Origin: Bdellovibrionales bacterium
GTDB lineage: Bacteria; Bdellovibrionota; Bdellovibrionia; Bdellovibrionales; UBA1609
DNA: 64,000 bases
Reading direction: 5' to 3'
Assembly (NCBI GenBank): GCA_965261545.1
Contig: CBDHDF010000010.1
Location: forward strand, 704,001 to 768,000
The position numbers and the translations under genes were made by a program. The notes beneath the pieces were generated by a model that ran no database searches, was not told the DNA's origin, and saw only the letters and a program-made list of their open reading frames with translations. This document shows, piece by piece, positions 10,822 through 20,883 of the stretch. Positions within the stretch are counted from its first letter, which is position 1. Each line of letters begins with the position of its first letter.

Positions 10822-11748
10822 CTACATACAATAGACGTCATTGCATCTTTCCAATCGATCTTGTACTAATTTAATGAAATCGGGTTCAATATCTATACCT
10901 ACACTGTTCCTACCTGTACATCTAGCGGCCAAGCAAGTTGTCCCAGAGCCGACGAATGGATCTAAAACTGTTTGTTTCTCAGTAGAGAAAAGACGAATAA
11001 GGTGCTCACATAGTTGCACTGGCTTTGGTGTTAAGTGTTTATTGCCATCTTCTCGCCTTTGTTTCTCAACAGTCATCACTGTTTCAGGGACTCGTCCTGT
11101 AATTGTTTGGCGCACGTCGATAAGCCCCGTTCCATGCAATAGCCAATTATCTACAAATGTCCCTTCCTTTGGCTTTTGCGCACAAATAATTAACTCAAAT
11201 TGGGGACGTAATTGCGGAGTTCGACGTCCTCCAATACTTCGAATGACTTCTAATTTCTGTTTTTCTGTCATATCACCACGCTTACGAACAAAATGATCGA
11301 CTGTAAATGCCTTAAATTGTGCGCTCTTTGTGAATCGCCACGCAAAAGAATCTCGAATCTCAAATCCAGCATTTTCAGCAGCTATGGCCGCACGGTGATA
11401 AAGCCTCGGGGCAGAAAACATAAGCATAAATCCGCCGGGTTTTAAAATACGCAATAATTCTTTAGCAATAGGTTCAATGAAAGCTTGTAATCTTTTTCCT
11501 TGATTAGGATCGAATTTCATACCAATAGGCAAGCCGCCAATAACTTTGGCCGCACGATGATTCCGAGAATAATGAATTCTGTCTTTATTCCATTTATCAT
11601 CAAGCCCATTGAGGAAATATGGTGGATCGGTTAAGACCAAATGAACGCTAGAGTCACCCATATCTTTAAGAATATTGCGGCAATCGCCTTTATAAAGTTT
11701 CACTGTAGATGTATGGACAATTGCACTCATTGCCCGCACCAGCTGCAT
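10822..11748 (-). CDS. Site-specific DNA methyltransferase (N4-C/N6-A, beta class), no cognate nuclease seen
   Basis: Motif IV TDPPY near the N-terminus, HLTPKP, motif I DPFVGSGTT near the C-terminus. Confidence 0.9.
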   Translation of the reverse strand: MQLVRAMSAIVHTSTVKLYKGDCRNILKDMGDSSVHLVLTDPPYFLNGLDDKWNKDRIHYSRNHRAAKVIGGLPIGMKFDPNQGKRLQAFIEPIAKELLRILKPGGFMLMFSAPRLYHRAAIAAENAGFEIRDSFAWRFTKSAQFKAFTVDHFVRKRGDMTEKQKLEVIRSIGGRRTPQLRPQFELIICAQKPKEGTFVDNWLLHGTGLIDVRQTITGRVPETVMTVEKQRREDGNKHLTPKPVQLCEHLIRLFSTEKQTVLDPFVGSGTTCLAARCTGRNSVGIDIEPDFIKLVQDRLERCNDVYCM

Positions 11749-12009: not shown

Positions 12010-13041
12010 CTAATCGTCAGTGTCATCGCCTTCGTCGGTGTCATCGCCTTCGTCAGCGTCATCGCCTTCGTCAGTGTCATCGCCTTCGTCAGCGTCATCG
12101 CCTTCGTCAGTGTCATCGCCTTCGTCAGTGTCATCGCCTTCGTCAGTGTCATCGCCTTCGTCAGTGTCATCGCCTTCGTCGGTGTCATCGCCTTCGTCGG
12201 TGTCATCGCCTTCGTCAGTGTCATCGCCTTCGTCAGCGTCATCGCCTTCGTCAGTGTCATCGCCTTCGTCAGTGTCATCGCCTTCGTCAGTGTCATCGCC
12301 TTCGTCAGTGTCATCGCCTTCGTCGGTATCATCGCCTTCGTCGGTATCATCGCCTTCGTCGGTATCACATTCGACATCACACTCATCGCCTTCGTCGGTG
12401 TCATCGCCTTCGTCAGTGTCATCGCCTTCGTCAGCGTCATCGCCTTCGGTGTCATCGCCTTCGTCAGTGTCATCTCCTTCGTCAGTGTCATCGCCTTCGT
12501 CGGTATCGGAAGTAGGAACCCCATGAATAGTCATCTCGATATTACGCAAAACAACTCCCAAAGAGTGTTTACCAAAAGTTAAGGTGAAATTCTCAACACC
12601 TCTTGAACCATTTTTGTGGTGCGCACTAAACGTCGCATACTCTGGTTTCTGCTCGTGAATATTTTTGCGCATAAGAGTTGTGGAGTAACTGCCCAACACA
12701 TCTTCCAAATCTTTAAATTGGAAGTCAGAAGACTGTATGCGAGTTCCATGAATTTCAGTCCAGCCGAAACCCAAGCCTTTGCTCTCTATAGAAATAAATA
12801 CTGGCATGCTTTTCTTTTCATTATCTTGCAGGGATGTACAAGTGAGAGTAACTTCACCTTCCAGCATTCCGTAGCCGATGAAAAACCCTGATTCATATCC
12901 ATTGAGTGTGCCATCAATATGACATAATGTCATATCTTCGACATCTCCGGCATCTCCGGCAGAGTGGGATAACGAAAATCCACCAAGAAAGAAAACTACA
13001 ACTGTAATAAAACTATAAAATAACTTTTTCATAATCGACAC
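12010..13041 (-). CDS. Secreted hypothetical protein with a very acidic C-terminal 6-aa tandem repeat
   Basis: Signal peptide MKKLFYSFITVVVFFLGG; beta-rich domain with 2 Cys; about 26 x D(T/A)DEGD; GAGG RBS upstream. Confidence 0.75.
   Translation of the reverse strand: MSIMKKLFYSFITVVVFFLGGFSLSHSAGDAGDVEDMTLCHIDGTLNGYESGFFIGYGMLEGEVTLTCTSLQDNEKKSMPVFISIESKGLGFGWTEIHGTRIQSSDFQFKDLEDVLGSYSTTLMRKNIHEQKPEYATFSAHHKNGSRGVENFTLTFGKHSLGVVLRNIEMTIHGVPTSDTDEGDDTDEGDDTDEGDDTEGDDADEGDDTDEGDDTDEGDECDVECDTDEGDDTDEGDDTDEGDDTDEGDDTDEGDDTDEGDDTDEGDDADEGDDTDEGDDTDEGDDTDEGDDTDEGDDTDEGDDTDEGDDTDEGDDADEGDDTDEGDDADEGDDTDEGDDTDD
12014..12508. repeat. 18-bp coding tandem repeat, about 26 copies
   Basis: Unit GTCATCGCCTTCGTC(A/G)G(T/C), with one 15-bp variant and one interrupting unit (ECDVEC). 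Confidence 0.97.
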
Positions 13042-13436
13042 CTCTTCTTGTTCTTGTTATATTATTCTGTTGTATCAGAATATATTTTTTGTTTAGTATA
13101 AAATACTTTTATTTTATGATCATGTAAACCCCATCGTTTACATTCTCAGAAAATGTTGCTTTACCATAATAGTAGTATGAGATCCTGTGGGTAAAGTCTA
13201 GTTTTTCACTACGACACATGACACAGCAACCCCTTCCAAGATTCATTTTAAAACTGGCACTGCTTGCTATCTTATTTTAAGCTGTACACTTTGATGACAG
13301 TAACTCTATGCAATACAGATGCATCTTGATGTCGATAATTTGAGTCCAATTTGAGGTCCAATTGGGCTCCATCAATGCAAGCAGCTCCTTCCACAAACAT
13401 AGTAACTCATAAAGACTTATGAATAAGATTGAGTCA

Positions 13437-13444
13437 TCCGATAA
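13437..13444 (+). promoter_or_regulatory. Possible sigma28 -10 element upstream of the synthase-kinase-regulator cluster
   Basis: TCCGATAA; the -35 match is weak. Confidence 0.25.
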
Positions 13445-13527: not shown

Positions 13528-15194
13528 ATGCAAGATATAGCTCGGCTTGCAAGGTACAAGAGATTTCGCAAAAAAGAAGATGTCGATCTCAGCATTGTGA
13601 TCTCCACAAACAAGGGTGAACAGTTCACCCTCTCTGTGGAGGACTGCTCTCTCACGGGTATTTTTGCCAAATCTTCCACCGCAGGCATAAACATCGATGT
13701 GAATAGTATCATCCCCAACTCCAAGATCGTATTTCAAAATGAGGAGTACCCCATTGGCCGACTGGTGTGCAAAAGATGTGTGGAGCATGGGGGCACCACC
13801 TACCTGGCCCTTTCTGTGGTGGATATTCGACTTCCAATCTCAAGCTTTTTATCCAAAGCCGTCTCCCTGGACCTTGACTCTGGCTCCAATGAGCTCGAAG
13901 TGGAGCTAAGCGAAAAGGGCTTCACCATTGGTGATTTCTTAACCACAAAGTTTGAAAATCAAGATATTTTTGATCGCTGTTACAAGTTTGAGTTGTTTTA
14001 CAAAACCTATAAGGATAGTGACCGCTTTGCCTATTTCTTTCCCAGAAACTCCATGACGGGGCCACGAATCACTGTGAGAAAACGAGGCCCTCGCAAGGAC
14101 TACCTGATGTTTGGCTCCAATGATTATTTAAATCTCTCCTGCCACCCCGAGGTCATCGAAGCCGCCAACCGTGCCACACTCCAGTACGGCCTAGGATCAA
14201 CGGGAGCCTCCTCCCACCTCGGGCACCACCACCCTCCACCAGGAGTTGGCCGACAAGGTGGCCAGAATGTGTGGACGAGAGGAGGCCCTCATCTTTCCCT
14301 TCGGGTTACAGTGCCAGCCTGGGGATTATCTCAGCCCTGGCCGGGGCCGAGGACCTTATTTTGGCCGACGTGTTGAGCCATGCCTCCCTCCAAGACGGTA
14401 TGAAGCTTTCGGGGGCCTCCTGCCGTTTTTACTCCCACAACAACATGAAGCATTTAGAACGCATTCTCAAAAAGGAGAGAGACAAACACTCGGGCTGCCT
14501 CATTGTCACCGAAGGGATTTTCTCTATGGATGGCACCCTCGGTAAAATCCATGAAATTCTGCCCATTGCTCGCAAGTACAATGCCAGGGTCATGGCCGAC
14601 CAAGGGCACTGCTTTGGGCTCTTGGGGGAGAGGCTTACGGGCACAGCAGAACATTTTGGCATGGAAGACAAACTGGATATCACCATGGGGCTTTTTTCCA
14701 AGGCCGCAGGAGCCTTTGGGGGATTTGTCACCGGCCCCCCCGAGTTGATCCACTGGTACAAAGTTTATGCAAGATCCTATATTTTTGCCACCAGCATCCC
14801 CCCCGGCATTGCCGCCGGAACCCTCAAAGCCCTTGAAATCATGGAGTCGGGGGAGAGGCAAAAAATACTCTTTAAAAACATCGAAATGTTTGTCAAAGGC
14901 TTGGTGGACATGGGGCTTCCCATCGACCCCCAACATAGCACTCCCATTGTCCCCATAGAAGTGGGAGATGAGACAAAAATGGGGGCGATCTTTCAATCCC
15001 TCCTCGAAGGCGGGGTCTATGCCCTCCCTGTGATGTACCCCGTGGTGGCACGCAATCATTGCCGCTTTCGTTTTTCCATCACCTCTGCCCTAACCCCCAC
15101 GGATATCGAGTTGGCCTTGATGGTGCTTAAAAGGGCCTTTGAACAAAACAATTTCACCTTCAAAGAAACAAAGAGAGAGGGAGAAGATTTTTAG
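13528..15194 (+). pseudogene. PilZ-like domain fused to a PLP-dependent alpha-oxoamine synthase (BioF/SPT/CqsA superfamily); two +1 frameshifts (pseudogene or sequencing error)
   Basis: ORFs 13477-14376, 14246-14545 and 14271-15194 join into about 554 aa if single bases near 14207 and 14300 are removed: MFGSNDYL...YGLGSTGAPPTSGTTTLHQEL...FPSGY...SHASL...EGIFSMDG...DQGH...LFSKA; N-terminal RYKR...DCSLTG; GGAGG RBS before ATG 13528. Confidence 0.8.
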
Positions 15195-15266
15195 ATGAAA
15201 AAAAGTAGAAAAAAGGACTCATGGAGTTTTTTCTATGGGCGTAAGTAAGTATGGGTGTAAGTAAGT

Positions 15267-17246
15267 ATGGGCATAAATGAATTATTGATTTCCTTGATGC
15301 TGACCTCTCAATCTTTGATGGGTGTGATCGAGATGCCTGAAAATGTCAGCCCTTGGAAAGTGGAAAAAAAATGGAGCCGAGACCAAGGCCAACTGGAACT
15401 TATCCTTTCCACCAGGTATGGAGACCTTTCTTGCCCCCAGGACTCCCTTCTCGTTTTCCCTCAAATTCTCTACGCAGAGCAAGAAGTTTACGGCAAGGGG
15501 ATCCACCGCTCCCTCAATGCTCCCCACGAACCCAAAAATATCTTTGGCCAAATGAGCATCAAGTGTTCCGACTTAAAATCCTTGGAGCCCAACGATACCC
15601 TCCAGTGGCGCGTGCAAGGTTACTCTCGCTATTTCTCTCACTTCAGTGAAAGCCCCAAGATCAAACCCATTGAAGCCCACCTCAAGGTCTCTGAGAACCT
15701 CTATATAGGTTCCACCCTGGGCCTTTTTCTCTTCTCCCTTCTCCTCTATATGGCCTTTGCCCACAAGGAGAACCTGGCCTTCACCCTCTCCCTCAGTTTA
15801 TCAGCCTTTTTTCTCGCCCTCTACTTTTTTTGGAATGTCAGCGGTGAATTTGGGCTCGTTCTCTCCATGTTAAGTGTCCATAAAATGGCCGACTTGTCCC
15901 TGGTCTTTGGCTTCCTCATGCTCATGATGGGTTTTTACTTTCGAGGCTTTCTCCACAAAAAATTCCTTATTTTATTTTTCGCCATGTGTGGGATTGCCAC
16001 CTTGACCATTGGCCTTGGGGGCAATGGGGACATCATCCAGGTGGGGACAAGCACGCCCTTTATAGCGGCGGCCCTTTGCCAGTTTTACATATGCCATAGC
16101 ACCCTGAGACTCTTTGTGAACAAAAGAGATCCCGTCCATCTCATGGAGTTCTTTTTTGCCCTGATTTTTTCCACCTTTGTTCTCCTTGAAATGTCCATTG
16201 TTATGGGAACTCTCCACATGCCCAGCTACTTTCCCTTGGGTTTGATTTTTGCCTTTCTGATCTTTACAGTTTCCATCAATCGACAGATTCGCAAAACCTA
16301 CAAAGAAAGGGACGAGCTTCTGGACGAAATGGGAGAGAAGATCAAAAGTCGCACCGCCGACCTCTCCCAAGCCCTCAAGGAAAAGGACATCGCCCAAGCG
16401 GAGCTTATTGAAAGTGCTCGATTGGCCTCCCTGGGGACATTGAGTGCCGGCATTGCCCATGAAATCAACAACAGCATTAACTATGTCAATGCCTGTGTGA
16501 TTGGTTTGGAAAAACAAATGAACTTGGCGGTGAGCAAGGACAGTCCTCAACTCCCCATCATCAAAAAACTTCTCAAAACCATCAAGCACGGGGCAGAGAT
16601 CACCATCAGTATTGTTTCCAGCCTTCGATCCTACACGGGCTTGGAACAATCTGAAATGCAAAGAACTTCCTTTGACGATGTGGTGAACTCTGTCACCACC
16701 ATCATTCGGTCCAAAATGGGCTCCATTGAATTTATCAAGGACTACGATCCCAAGGTGCAAATTTATGGCTCCGTCGTGGGACTTAGCCAAGTCATTATGA
16801 ACCTTGTCACCAACGCCCTAGATGCTTTGCCCCACCAAGAAGAAGGACAAATCAAGGAAGAGAGAATCAAGGAAGGAAGAATTAAGATATCCGCCCACAC
16901 AATCGAAAATAGAAAAGATAGCGAAAGTAACGAACATAGTGAAAATAGCGAGAGTAACAAAAATAATAAAGATCATTTTAAAATTGTGATCTCAGACAAT
17001 GGGTCGGGAATGGAGCCCCATCTTGTGAAACATATCTTTGACCCCTTCTTTACCACCAAAGAAGTAGGCAAGGGAACGGGTCTAGGGCTTTATATTGTAA
17101 AAAAGGAAATTGAAAGTCGACACAAAGGGACAATCACCGTGGAGAGCACCAAGGGCGAAGGAACAACCTTTGTCATTGAACTACCGCAACCCCAATCACA
17201 ACGAAAGCCCCAAGCCCACAAGCTTCTTTACAAGGAGACTGCCTAA
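15267..17246 (+). CDS. Membrane sensor histidine kinase (extracytoplasmic domain + about 7 TM helices, 7TM-DISM-like; NtrB-type core)
   Basis: H box AGIAHEINN, N box QVIMNLVTNALDA, DNGSG, FDPFFTTK, GKGTGLGL; seven hydrophobic segments. Confidence 0.92.
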   Translation: MGINELLISLMLTSQSLMGVIEMPENVSPWKVEKKWSRDQGQLELILSTRYGDLSCPQDSLLVFPQILYAEQEVYGKGIHRSLNAPHEPKNIFGQMSIKCSDLKSLEPNDTLQWRVQGYSRYFSHFSESPKIKPIEAHLKVSENLYIGSTLGLFLFSLLLYMAFAHKENLAFTLSLSLSAFFLALYFFWNVSGEFGLVLSMLSVHKMADLSLVFGFLMLMMGFYFRGFLHKKFLILFFAMCGIATLTIGLGGNGDIIQVGTSTPFIAAALCQFYICHSTLRLFVNKRDPVHLMEFFFALIFSTFVLLEMSIVMGTLHMPSYFPLGLIFAFLIFTVSINRQIRKTYKERDELLDEMGEKIKSRTADLSQALKEKDIAQAELIESARLASLGTLSAGIAHEINNSINYVNACVIGLEKQMNLAVSKDSPQLPIIKKLLKTIKHGAEITISIVSSLRSYTGLEQSEMQRTSFDDVVNSVTTIIRSKMGSIEFIKDYDPKVQIYGSVVGLSQVIMNLVTNALDALPHQEEGQIKEERIKEGRIKISAHTIENRKDSESNEHSENSESNKNNKDHFKIVISDNGSGMEPHLVKHIFDPFFTTKEVGKGTGLGLYIVKKEIESRHKGTITVESTKGEGTTFVIELPQPQSQRKPQAHKLLYKETA

Positions 17247-18448
17247 TGGGAACTCGAATTTTATATCTTGATGATGAAGTCCATCAGCACATCTCTCTGG
17301 AGGTCCTCATTCCCGAAGAATGGGAAATTCACTGCTTTGCAGACCCCCTCAAGGCTTTGGACGCCCTCTCAGAGATTGATCCCTGGATTATTATAAGCGA
17401 TCAGAGAATGCCTCATATGCAGGGTTTTCGATTTTTGGAATTGGCAAAAACAATGACCCCTGACGCCATTCGAGTTATCACCACGGGCTACAGCGATGAA
17501 AAATCCATTGTGGAGTCCATTCGCAAGGCCCAGGTCTTTGATTATATTGTCAAGCCCTGGGATACAAACAAACTCTTAAAATCCCTGGAGAGAGCGGCTC
17601 ATTTTTACGAAAGTGAAAAAGAGAAAAAGGAGTTAAACCAAAGACTCCAGAGAAAAAACAAAGAACTCAAAGACCTCTGCGATCAATTGGGCTCTCTCGT
17701 TCGTAGCCATGAAAAAATAGAAGAAGAATTGAAAAGCTGGGTCCACCCCTTTGTCATGCAGGCGGCCGCTGTGAATATCCATTTTCCCATTCAAAAAGAT
17801 ATCGCAGCCCTTGTCATTGATATTATCGGCAGCAGTGAAATACACGAAAAAATCACTGACAATATGCCCCTACGTATTCGAGTGCTACAAACAGCTTGGG
17901 AAATTATTCTTCGCCACGGTGGTGAGGTGGAGTCCCAAGAAGGAGATAAGATCTATGCCAATTTTGGTTTATTTGATTTGGTAAAGCACCCCGCCAACGC
18001 CGCCCTGGCCGCAGCCAAAGAGCTAAGATCAAGTCTCCAAAGCCTCAATGATCACTATGGAACCAGTGTCGAGTGTGGTGTGGCTGTTCATGTGGCCAAT
18101 AAATGCTCTGTCTTTCTAAGAAAGGCTGTTTTAAATACAGAAAGTGGTGTTAAAGTGCGAAAGAAATTTGATACAAGCTCCTTAGATATTGATCTCACCC
18201 ACAGGCTGGAGGACATCACCCACCAACTCCCCGGAAGCAATATCATGCTCACAAGAGATTTATTTGACTATCTAGAACGCCCTCCCGATAAAAACCAAAT
18301 CACTTCCCTGGGACACTATGTTTTAAAAGGCCAGTTGCAACCGGCAGAGTTACTTCTCATTAAATCCAACCGTGTCACCCAAGAAGAAATTGAAGAACTC
18401 AAAAGCAATTACTTATCCCAATTCTCTCTAGAGAAGAAGGTTGCCTAA
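17246..18448 (+). CDS. Response regulator with class III nucleotide cyclase-like output domain
   Basis: ILYLDDE/ISDQRMP/TTG/VKPW receiver; coiled coil; VIDIIGSS, QEGD, GVAVH, DLTHRLE, LKG cyclase motifs; TAATG overlap with the kinase. Confidence 0.85.
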   Translation: MGTRILYLDDEVHQHISLEVLIPEEWEIHCFADPLKALDALSEIDPWIIISDQRMPHMQGFRFLELAKTMTPDAIRVITTGYSDEKSIVESIRKAQVFDYIVKPWDTNKLLKSLERAAHFYESEKEKKELNQRLQRKNKELKDLCDQLGSLVRSHEKIEEELKSWVHPFVMQAAAVNIHFPIQKDIAALVIDIIGSSEIHEKITDNMPLRIRVLQTAWEIILRHGGEVESQEGDKIYANFGLFDLVKHPANAALAAAKELRSSLQSLNDHYGTSVECGVAVHVANKCSVFLRKAVLNTESGVKVRKKFDTSSLDIDLTHRLEDITHQLPGSNIMLTRDLFDYLERPPDKNQITSLGHYVLKGQLQPAELLLIKSNRVTQEEIEELKSNYLSQFSLEKKVA

Positions 18449-18531: not shown

Positions 18532-19365
18532 CTAAAAGCTTTTAATCAATGGCGATGGTGTCAACCTTCGCCATTGAAAAGAGGGGGCCTGAAAGTAGTG
18601 GTTCAAAAAGGGAACCAAACAGGACCCTATCATAAGGGCATAAATCAAACCATTCTCCATAAAGAAATAATAATGGAAGGTAAGGGCTGCGATGGCCACA
18701 AAAGATGAGAATACGACTTGACCCATAAAGTGATGGGGAGCACTCCTAGGGTCAGAAATCATAAAAAAAGCAAAAATTAAGAAAGAACCTTTTAAGGCTG
18801 TGTGATAGAAAACAGCCATTTCGTAACCCAGATAAATATTTCGTATAAGAACTCCTCCCAAGTAAAAGATGAGAAACAACCAAGCCGTATGACTCTGGCG
18901 CATTTGACCAGCGATCAAGCAGCCCACAGCGATGACCCATGCTGATATGGAAATCCCTGAGCCCCATTGTCCCGGTGAAATCCAAGCCTTATTCCACAGT
19001 AAAATCGCAAAGATGCCAAGAGCTGAAGGGTTGAAGATATGTTGGCCCTTGTATTGTAGAAGAAATTTTGAATGGATGGCGATAAAGGCCGCAAGGGGAT
19101 GCATCCATAAGTTATGGCTTCTTAAAAGAAGAACAATACTGAGGGAGCTAATAAGGGCACTGAGAAAACTGTGAGATTTGAGATTTAATTTTTTTATCCA
19201 AAAAAATTGTGTGAGTAGACCCGAAGCCAAGGTCAGAGGAACCTGCATCCATCGAAAAGATAGATCAAACATCCATAGGCCATAAATAAATAGACTCGCT
19301 AGGAATATGATCTGTATATACCTTACGTCTTTGATCAACACCCGCATGTCCTTGGTCAACAACAA
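18532..19365 (-). CDS. RnfD/NqrB-like integral membrane protein
   Basis: HIFNPS, WISPGQWG, FAFFMISDP, multiple TM helices. Confidence 0.75.
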   Translation of the reverse strand: MLLTKDMRVLIKDVRYIQIIFLASLFIYGLWMFDLSFRWMQVPLTLASGLLTQFFWIKKLNLKSHSFLSALISSLSIVLLLRSHNLWMHPLAAFIAIHSKFLLQYKGQHIFNPSALGIFAILLWNKAWISPGQWGSGISISAWVIAVGCLIAGQMRQSHTAWLFLIFYLGGVLIRNIYLGYEMAVFYHTALKGSFLIFAFFMISDPRSAPHHFMGQVVFSSFVAIAALTFHYYFFMENGLIYALMIGSCLVPFLNHYFQAPSFQWRRLTPSPLIKSF

Positions 19366-19461
19366 ATATCCTTACCTTAGCCACAACCGCATGCCCTTAA
19401 TCAATCCAACGGCATGTCTTTGGTCAACAACAGTTTATTGTTTATGCTTATTACTTATTGC

Positions 19462-20883
19462 TTATTTCCACAGATTTTTCCACCATGGGTCTTTGGATGT
19501 GGGAGTGTGTGATCCAGGAGATGAAGAAGAATTCATATTTTTTCTAATCTCTTGGATATTCCACCCTGTCAGTCGAGCCAATACTTGAGCTTCTTTTTCT
19601 TGACGCTGGGGGAGATTTGCAAAATACTTCTTGGCCGCCTGACATTGTGAGGGTGATCCCTTCCAAGGATGTCGTAAAATATAACGACCCTGGAAGTTTC
19701 TCGTGTCACGTGTTTCGTGAAACATCAAGTCTGCGGGAAAGGTCTTGTCCGTGTAACGAAGGTGAAGACGAGTGACCTTAACAGGTTGTGCCCCTCCTTT
19801 TGAGCGAGAAAAAGTCCTCCCTTGGGGCGAGAAAGAAGAACGGTTGGAGGGACGATTTTTTCCTCCTTGATTTTGATTCAACCAGAAAACACCCAAGCCT
19901 TTTAACTCTTGTTGAGTCAAAGGATCTGCGGCACAGGGATCACACCAACCCATATCCCAATAGTACTCCATAAAAACAGTTTTCATCTGTTCTCTTGCCA
20001 CCTGTGTTTTAAAAATATCTTTGTAGAAGTCAGAAAATTTGTCTTTAACATAGATAGGTATCTCCACATCTGTGGGTATCTTGGTCGTAACATAGTTTGT
20101 GGTTTCCACACGGCCATTTTTGGTCAACACATAGACAAATAAATCCTGGGGGCCTTTGGAGTTTAACATTCCCAGTCGAATGGGGAGCATAAATTTTTCT
20201 GAGGAAAAAGCAAATTGAAGGGGCCTTAGATATGTGAGGCCCGCTCTCGCTTGTTGCTCCAAATTGACTTTGGCCACAAAGAATTTCATTTTTTGTTTGA
20301 TGTAGGGTTGAAGGGCCCTATGAGCCCCCTTGGGGATGTTATACTTGTTCAGTTTAAGCCATGTCTCCAAACCATGGGATTCTTTGGCTGAGAGAACAAC
20401 AATATCGTACTCCCCCACAGTGAATTTCTCTTCCACGGTGACTCCAAGAGATTTCTTTTTGGGGGGAGCCCCTCTTAAGCTTAAGGACTTGTTGAGGTTT
20501 CTGTTGCTCTCCATGGCGTCGTATACTATATTTGGCCGACAGGGGTCCTCATCAAAGTATTCAACAAGCCTTGGTGCCGTGAAGGAGTCAATTCTTTCAA
20601 AAAGTTTCTTATCCCCCACATGCACCTGTTCTTTCTTGAGAATCGAAGGAAGGGGAACCACAAGAGCAAAATTTTTCAAAGACCCCTCATAGTCATTCAT
20701 CATACTGATAACTGTTTTATTCTCATGCCTCACCAGAACAACTTGAGAGGCTTTGTTAAAAAGCTTTGCATTGCCCTTGGCCACATAAAAGCCGCAAAAC
20801 CCATGAGCTTGATAAAAGGGTAAAAATAAACATAGAGTGATAACATACAAAAAAACATACTGAGCTTTCATTTTTTTCTCCAT
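19462..20883 (-). CDS. DUF2330-family secreted protein
   Basis: Signal peptide then FCGFYVA, TAPRLVEYFDEDPC, VGEYDIVVLSA, FMLPIRLG, WCDPCAADP, TRLHLRY. Confidence 0.8.
   Translation of the reverse strand: MEKKMKAQYVFLYVITLCLFLPFYQAHGFCGFYVAKGNAKLFNKASQVVLVRHENKTVISMMNDYEGSLKNFALVVPLPSILKKEQVHVGDKKLFERIDSFTAPRLVEYFDEDPCRPNIVYDAMESNRNLNKSLSLRGAPPKKKSLGVTVEEKFTVGEYDIVVLSAKESHGLETWLKLNKYNIPKGAHRALQPYIKQKMKFFVAKVNLEQQARAGLTYLRPLQFAFSSEKFMLPIRLGMLNSKGPQDLFVYVLTKNGRVETTNYVTTKIPTDVEIPIYVKDKFSDFYKDIFKTQVAREQMKTVFMEYYWDMGWCDPCAADPLTQQELKGLGVFWLNQNQGGKNRPSNRSSFSPQGRTFSRSKGGAQPVKVTRLHLRYTDKTFPADLMFHETRDTRNFQGRYILRHPWKGSPSQCQAAKKYFANLPQRQEKEAQVLARLTGWNIQEIRKNMNSSSSPGSHTPTSKDPWWKNLWK

Follow-up and report, generated by a model that had tools for sequence, protein, structure and literature searches.

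A PilZ-fused oxoamine synthase, a sensor kinase and a REC-cyclase form a candidate autoinducer cassette in Bdellovibrionota

In the quorum-sensing systems Vibrio CqsA/CqsS and Legionella LqsA/LqsS/LqsR, an enzyme of the oxoamine synthase family is clustered with a membrane kinase and, in the case of Lqs, also with a regulator, as set out in passages of PMC3376566. Here we analysed a stretch of 64,000 nucleotides from a Bdellovibrionales bacterium (assembly GCA_965261545.1, contig CBDHDF010000010.1, positions 704,001 to 768,000 of the forward strand), hereafter called the window, which contains a three-gene locus that we name cassette A. It encodes a pyridoxal phosphate (PLP) alpha-oxoamine synthase fused to a PilZ-like domain, a membrane histidine kinase with seven transmembrane helices (7TM) and a response regulator joining a REC domain to a class III nucleotide cyclase. 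This is most likely a synthase-receptor signalling arrangement resembling Cqs/Lqs but unusual in its input, its output and its pattern of exchange, and we regard it as probable that it is an autoinducer (self-signal) circuit running from the oxoamine synthase through an aminoketone to the 7TM kinase, the REC-cyclase and a cyclic nucleotide (cNMP). In contrast to CqsA/LqsA, the synthase lies outside the family model NF005526 and carries the additional PilZ-like domain, and the output is a class III cyclase. While CqsS and LqsS are six-helix receptors, the kinase of cassette A combines a periplasmic domain with seven helices, which sets it apart from the published design (passages of PMC3376566 and PMC4821796). 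A second relevant system is PhcB-PhcS-PhcR/Q of Ralstonia/Cupriavidus, whose methyltransferase PhcB and sensor domain of PhcS have distant homologues in another cassette of the phylum, cassette B, and not among the genes in the window.

The elements of cassette A in the window are:
13417..13443, plus strand: FliA (sigma-28)-type promoter motif of putative function; -35 with one mismatch, 16-base spacer, perfect -10
13528..15194, plus strand: gene for the PilZ-like/PLP alpha-oxoamine synthase fusion (PF00155), the predicted signal synthase
13528..13857, plus strand: N-terminal part of the synthase, PilZ-like, bearing the motifs RxxR and (D/N/E)xSxxG; predicted cyclic di-GMP (c-di-GMP) input
14206..14207, plus strand: first frameshift, one extra base that is absent from contigs of sequencing runs X2 and X4
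14294..14294, plus strand: second frameshift, one extra base likewise absent from contigs of X2 and X4
15267..17246, plus strand: gene for the membrane histidine kinase (659 amino acids) with HATPase_c and the phospho-acceptor His398
15267..16290, plus strand: sensor region of the kinase with signal/anchor, periplasmic domain and seven transmembrane helices; 7TMR-DISM-like, predicted receptor
17246..18448, plus strand: gene for the response regulator with REC (Asp52), coiled coil (107-165) and class III nucleotide cyclase (179-375)

A first-pass annotation, made by a model from the sequence, had described three co-oriented genes with kinase and regulator joined by TAATG, and the coordinates confirm this, the overlap lying at 17244-17248. 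Its remark that biotin genes are not adjacent was also borne out: the other oxoamine synthase of this genome (4.3 Mb, 11 contigs) lies at a distance of about 165 kb and has a BioA-like gene (assigned by eye) next to it. The domain scan that it proposed recovered PF00155 (E 7e-36), HATPase_c (E 9e-25) and REC (E 1e-13), whereas the cyclase and PilZ domains of the window proteins stayed under the Pfam thresholds.

The linkage of the three genes is conserved. A search with the cyclase region in 384 genomes of the order returned 35 strong matches besides the window, which together with two weaker ones gave 37 loci. In 30 of these, distributed across Bdellovibrionota, synthase, kinase and regulator occur together, with the synthase truncated by a contig end in four and the regulator inverted in one. 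Among 16 further loci picked by the synthase, the cognate sensor is adjacent in 13, a contig edge intervenes in two and the sensor is absent in one. Hence, the clustering with a cognate kinase and regulator known from CqsA/LqsA systems recurs here (30/37 and 13/16 loci), as the neighbourhood search suggested in the first-pass annotation was meant to reveal. Of the seven loci among the 37 that do not hold all three genes together, that of G230 is divided between two contigs and that of G159 is decayed; the remaining five (G326, G067, G254, G008 and G164) are taken up below. No fourth gene, no exporter, no downstream lipid-pathway gene and no defence-effector gene is conserved alongside cassette A in the 37 loci. 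Across 25 loci, synthase identity correlates with sensor identity when the other domains are controlled for (partial rho 0.62, and 0.60 in 14 spread-out loci), compared with a partial rho of 0.07 between synthase and kinase core in the 25 loci. Database entries of cassette-A proteins exist from Pseudobdellovibrio sp. HCB154 and Bdellovibrio sp. qaytius, and records holding relatives of the genes belong to Pseudobdellovibrionaceae, Bdellovibrionales, Bdellovibrio and Oligoflexales; no plasmid record covers 80% of the synthase fusion, and no RNA record carrying it was listed.

The open reading frame of the synthase in the window is spread over three frames as a consequence of two single surplus bases near 14206 and 14294. 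X2 and X4 are runs of one sample, and their contigs, which differ from the window by about 1%, span both frameshift sites. Because these contigs contain neither extra base, the frameshifts are probably assembly errors; the long contigs of runs X1 and X3 match the window exactly but leave the frameshift site uncovered. A lesion specific to this strain is conceivable, albeit less likely than an assembly error, and we consider a pseudogene unlikely since the bases are absent in the X2/X4 contigs and the gene is intact in relatives. These intact relatives comprise 554-580 amino acids and, in a structure model, an all-beta N-terminal domain followed by the PLP domain.

The best solved match of the synthase is the serine palmitoyltransferase (SPT) of Sphingobacterium (E 1e-105, about 33% identity), while the match to CqsA is far weaker (E 1e-49), and the model of an intact relative matches the SPT fold with a Z of 48.5. 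The PLP-binding His, Asp, His and Lys are kept in 25 of 25 synthases, placing them in the alpha-oxoamine synthase superfamily; fold and PLP residues are what the protein has in common with bacterial SPT, BioF and Kbl. Four intact relatives nevertheless remained under every curated equivalog cut-off, with scores of 328-373 of 426 for BioF, 308-339 of 460 for Kbl and 285-330 of 640 for SPT (CFB). Lower still were those for the alpha-hydroxyketone synthase model NF005526 (157-209 bits, cut-off 428), and membership in CqsA/LqsA was rejected on this ground, in agreement with the earlier view of an enzyme more BioF/SPT-like than CqsA-like. In a quick maximum-likelihood tree, 44 cassette-A synthases form one clade with an SH-like approximate likelihood ratio test (SH-aLRT) value of 100, apart from 21 stand-alone BioF/Kbl/SPT-like enzymes that were picked from search lists, the tree being made up of uncharacterised enzymes; a phylogeny, as called for in the first-pass annotation, yields a separate group. 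Low scores, an own clade and linkage to signalling rather than lipid or biotin genes led us to reject a housekeeping BioF/SPT identity, and neither of the two outcomes that the annotation had named as contradicting a signalling function, missing linkage elsewhere and grouping with housekeeping enzymes, was observed.

The PilZ-like nature of the N-terminal domain, also anticipated in that annotation, rests on matches that are weak yet consistent across profile, atlas and Pfam searches: Klebsiella YcgR-labelled PilZ chains were matched with E 0.006, PilZ clusters made up 27 of 30 atlas matches, and PF07238 was detected in 2 of 27 family members. The whole-chain fold searches of the synthase were dominated by the PLP domain. 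While the domain assignment is hence supported, the motif turned out to be RxxR and not RxxxR. Both R of this motif and the S and G of the (D/N)xSxxG motif are invariant in 25 of 25 full-length relatives, position one of the latter being D or N in 21 and E in four.

Hydropathy analysis of 31 homologues predicts a signal/anchor at the N-terminus of the kinase, then a periplasmic domain (about 125 residues) and seven hydrophobic segments. The periplasmic cysteines C56 and C100 are invariant among the homologues, as are H398 and the N-box and G-box residues, so that the HisKA/HATPase core is intact. PF07695 was found in 2 of 31 sensor members (best E 2e-5), with no PF07696 match listed, and is present in 48% of the members of the top atlas match. 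The window kinase is longer than its relatives owing to some 35 low-complexity residues inserted between the N and G1 boxes (window 16840-16985). At another locus, three tandem sensor paralogues of 557-568 amino acids with degenerate kinase cores precede the synthase (L038:10448-16152).

The regulator was modelled with a predicted local distance difference test (pLDDT) score of 93.8. Its cyclase domain matches CyaC with a Z of 21.7 and a root-mean-square deviation of 2.8 Å over 181 residues, and the matches to CyaC, CyaB and Cya2 lie at Z 20.8-21.7. D52, D192, D234, D316 and R320 are present in 33 of 33 genome-derived copies; both metal-binding Asp and the catalytic Arg are thereby retained, which together with the fold assigns the domain to the class III cyclases. 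The cyclase output proposed in the first-pass annotation is therefore upheld as to fold, whereas the base-selecting and transition-state residues are non-canonical. We also considered a Pycsar defence function, which is unsupported given the weak PycC profile matches in 7 of 54 members (best E 1e-5) and the lack of a conserved effector neighbour.

Further insight came from cassette B, in which an S-adenosylmethionine methyltransferase with a PilZ-like N-terminus is followed by a membrane class III cyclase. The two genes are neighbours in 20 of the 21 loci that we inspected, all but one of which were selected from the 101 carrier genomes. PF07238 is detected in 4 of 20 methyltransferases (best E 1e-10), the PilZ-like domains of the A and B synthases are homologous (E 1e-6), and RxxR and G are invariant in both; between the A and B sensors no homology was detected. 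The methyltransferase matches a 468-amino-acid protein that heads a methyltransferase-kinase-regulator-regulator operon in Paraburkholderia and whose close relatives carry the name 3-hydroxypalmitic acid methyl ester biosynthesis protein, which we take to be PhcB. The match to proteins of this name has a probability of 100 (profile E 1e-42), and the membrane part of the B cyclase matches the sensor kinase of the Paraburkholderia operon (probability 97.7, E 2.5e-12). Cassette B is thus homologous to PhcB/PhcS by comparison with name-annotated relatives rather than the characterised Ralstonia proteins. Partial accounts describe PhcB/PhcS as a quorum-sensing pair and the characterised PhcB-family products as diffusible. 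Cassette B differs from the Phc system in its receptor, which is joined directly to a class III cyclase and not to a kinase, and in the RxxR PilZ-like domain borne by its methyltransferase. In some genomes of genus g39, a second cassette-B methyltransferase lies without an adjacent cyclase (L115:8064-9554), and L121, L122 and L129 represent a divergent subtype whose cyclase scores weakly against other B cyclases.

Cassettes A and B exclude each other. With 37 carriers of the A and 101 carriers of the B synthase, 9.7 of the 384 genomes would be expected to hold both, and none does; within the five genera holding both, whose sizes are partly inferred, 6.1 would be expected and again none was observed. 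Nominal probabilities for this exclusion are inflated by kinship among the genomes. A phylum sample of 401 genomes, which overlaps the 384 and was compared by eye, contains 21 A and 64 B carriers without overlap, 9 and 17 of them, respectively, outside the order. Moreover, matching genes flank the two cassettes on either side in four comparisons of sites, and on one side in a fifth:
L116/L117 versus L044/L046/L047: two-sided; flanks of L116 up to 98% identical
L119 versus L057: two-sided
L128 versus L045/L051: two-sided
L126 versus L040/L041: two-sided, inverted
L124 versus L042: one-sided
The sites of exchange differ from lineage to lineage, and the pattern is compatible with repeated replacement as well as with reciprocal loss out of a double locus. 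Since cassette A is exchanged with a Phc-type cassette, chemical self-signalling by cassette A is likely, and both cassettes are, by this analogy, most likely autoinducer circuits that follow one design but use two chemistries. Triad linkage, the own clade and this exchange together bear out the first-pass proposal of a signalling system analogous to, but distinct from, Cqs and Lqs.

Synthases and receptors that co-vary and are swapped at one site among close relatives are known from Staphylococcus agr and Bacillus comQXP. There, the alleles are homologous variants of one chemistry, whereas cassettes A and B employ unrelated enzyme, receptor and relay families. Direct control of a class III adenylate cyclase by a quorum-sensing receptor has been engineered in a CqsS-Rv1625c chimera (passages of PMC4821796). 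In comparison with this artificial protein, natural routes appear to be the two-component relay of cassette A, a fusion of the cassette-A 7TM sensor straight to the cassette-A cyclase without kinase or REC (G008, L065:2681-3919, and P0014) and the PhcS-type fusion of cassette B. The fusion in G008 may represent an eavesdropping receptor. In G138, a cassette-A sensor on a divergent kinase core lies upstream of cassette B (L117:9675-11390), possibly as a remnant or a listener.

Using the Bdellovibrio attack-phase FliA consensus given in part of PMC3627812, we found that 21 of 41 A loci, the window among them, have the motif upstream, compared with 25 of 310 control regions; enrichment is weaker for cassette B (5 of 17 loci). 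If FliA does control the cassette, as the promoter sequence suggests, the circuit would operate in the free-swimming attack phase. One B pair is identical to two B. bacteriovorus entries annotated as 'regulatory protein' and 'probable adenylate cyclase'; by name and length, these are consistent with Bd3071 and Bd3072 in the partial records available. The amount of Bd3071 protein drops by about 2.2 log2 units within the prey and is regained on exit (data in part of PMC12546842), and passages of PMC6717892 count Bd3072 among uncharacterised cyclases and describe Bd1971 as a cAMP/cGMP-activated c-di-GMP phosphodiesterase. The genome of the window encodes three cNMP-EAL and four GGDEF proteins, and a feedback loop to c-di-GMP is therefore available, its operation being predicted. 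Two of the cNMP-EAL genes stand in tandem (G000:C10:285712-288533) and the third on contig C6; they are candidate effectors of the cassette.

Taken together, we infer the following chemical steps. By analogy with PilZ proteins, c-di-GMP would bind the RxxR PilZ-like domain and gate the synthase, which, as its family suggests, would condense an amino acid with an acyl-CoA or acyl-ACP under decarboxylation to a lipophilic aminoketone. This presumably diffusible product may bind the adjacent 7TM sensor. Phosphate would then be relayed from His398 to Asp52, as is typical of the protein family, and the phosphorylated REC-cyclase may become active and form a cyclic nucleotide. The latter could act on Bd1971-type cNMP-EAL phosphodiesterases and lower c-di-GMP, which would feed back on the synthase.

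Several observations weigh against such an autoinducer circuit. Some concern the linkage: the loci of G067, G254 and G326 end before the position of the synthase, and no fused synthase is found elsewhere in these fragmented assemblies (G326 yields only a stand-alone match); G008 carries the cyclase without any synthase match in a genome that is 87% complete, and the synthase of G314 has no cognate sensor within 18 kb. The two copies in G309 connect synthase and kinase to a non-cyclase REC protein. Their loci (L080:8049-13289 and L081:139-5397) contain a convergent gene for this 230-amino-acid REC protein and a metallo-beta-lactamase-fold gene, possibly a phosphodiesterase. In G164, cassette B is followed by the cassette-A kinase and REC-cyclase (L060:4470-10433), so that A-type partners are joined to a B synthase, and no oxoamine synthase was found in this genome (99% complete). 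Because synthase and sensor are neighbours on the chromosome, their correlation could stem from joint recombination as well as from kinship. Related genomes are likewise not independent in the A/B counts, and 246 of the 384 genomes yielded neither synthase with these queries. On the level of the proteins, the sensor is periplasmic and 7TMR-DISM-like in contrast to the 6TM lipid receptors CqsS and LqsS, the first Arg of the PilZ motif is replaced by a hydrophobic residue, giving RxxR in place of RxxxR, and the PhcB identity of the B synthase is based on database names at about 26% identity. Activity and product of the cyclase are placed in doubt by mostly Ser (otherwise N/A/H) in place of the canonical adenylate cyclase Lys and by Asp in place of the transition-state Asn in 33 of 33 copies; although the second base-selecting position is Asp in 23 of 33, the regulator thus lacks the Lys plus Asp/Thr pair and the Asn of class III adenylate cyclases.

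These substitutions, together with the new conserved residues H282 and K306, the weak PycC matches and the non-cyclase partner in G309, could mean that synthase and kinase form a signal pair while the cyclase is dead or makes cGMP or a pyrimidine cNMP, acting through NTP binding or docking. We consider this quite unlikely, as the metal Asp pair and the catalytic Arg persist in every copy, Ma1120 is an active class III cyclase without the Asn (according to passages of PMC4215837), the cassette-B cyclase keeps the adenine-selecting Lys/Thr pair in most copies (Thr replaces Lys in 4 of 20) and adenylate cyclases reach a fold score of 21.7 compared with 19.1 for a cyclic UMP synthase. The circuit might also be cell-autonomous, the product being a sphingoid-like envelope lipid or precursor that the kinase monitors as a lipid-status or developmental cue without any cell-to-cell signal. 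SPT as the best match in sequence and structure and the lack of a conserved exporter would agree with this; the synthase, however, scores far under the SPT cut-offs, downstream lipid genes do not travel with the cassette, and its place can be taken by a methyltransferase from the PhcB family, for which partial accounts describe the characterised products as diffusible, so that we hold this reading to be unlikely. Finally, the genes might have no more in common than an insertion hot spot and a FliA promoter, with the kinase sensing a prey or environmental cue such as cell-wall carbohydrate and the synthase being an unrelated attack-phase enzyme. 7TMR-DISM sensors are thought to bind carbohydrates, G164 has the kinase and cyclase but not the synthase, and in G138 a sensor-kinase remnant stands beside cassette B. 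Nonetheless, linkage is kept at about 35-60% identity, with the cassette at differing positions in the chromosome and across several classes of the phylum, synthase and sensor co-vary, and only 1 of 14 informative loci has the synthase without the sensor, which renders separate pathways very unlikely.

Next to cassette A, the minus strand of the window encodes a DNA methyltransferase-like protein (10822-11748, by eye) and a secreted-looking 343-amino-acid protein with about 25 tandem acidic six-residue repeats, directed away from the cassette (12010-13041). On its other side, a DUF2330 gene and an RnfD/NQR2-like membrane protein form a pair directed towards the cassette (18532-20883, minus strand).

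Our literature search, for which subscription papers were mostly out of reach, found no published description of cassette A or B and no quorum-sensing system described for Bdellovibrio; 'quorum' and 'autoinducer' are both absent from the text of a 2026 review of the model predator. We conclude that chemical self-signalling is likely in these mostly predatory Bdellovibrio-like bacteria. More tentatively, and with somewhat less than even confidence, we propose that Bdellovibrionota possess phylum-wide self-signalling in two unrelated, interchangeable languages, aminoketone or methyl ester, with c-di-GMP-gated synthases and cNMP feedback, which would serve kin counting or recognition in the attack phase and be swapped as whole cassettes at the same site. 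If the autoinducer circuit holds true, it would provide an autoinducer synthase under the control of a second-messenger domain, a class of receptor-ligand pairs that is new for 7TM-DISM-like kinases and a case of wholly unrelated signalling chemistries exchanged at one locus. It would also suggest where the ligand of orphan membrane cyclases such as Bd3072 may come from and name candidate genes in cultured, harmless predators for density or kinship signalling, which bears on the use of these bacteria as living antibiotics.

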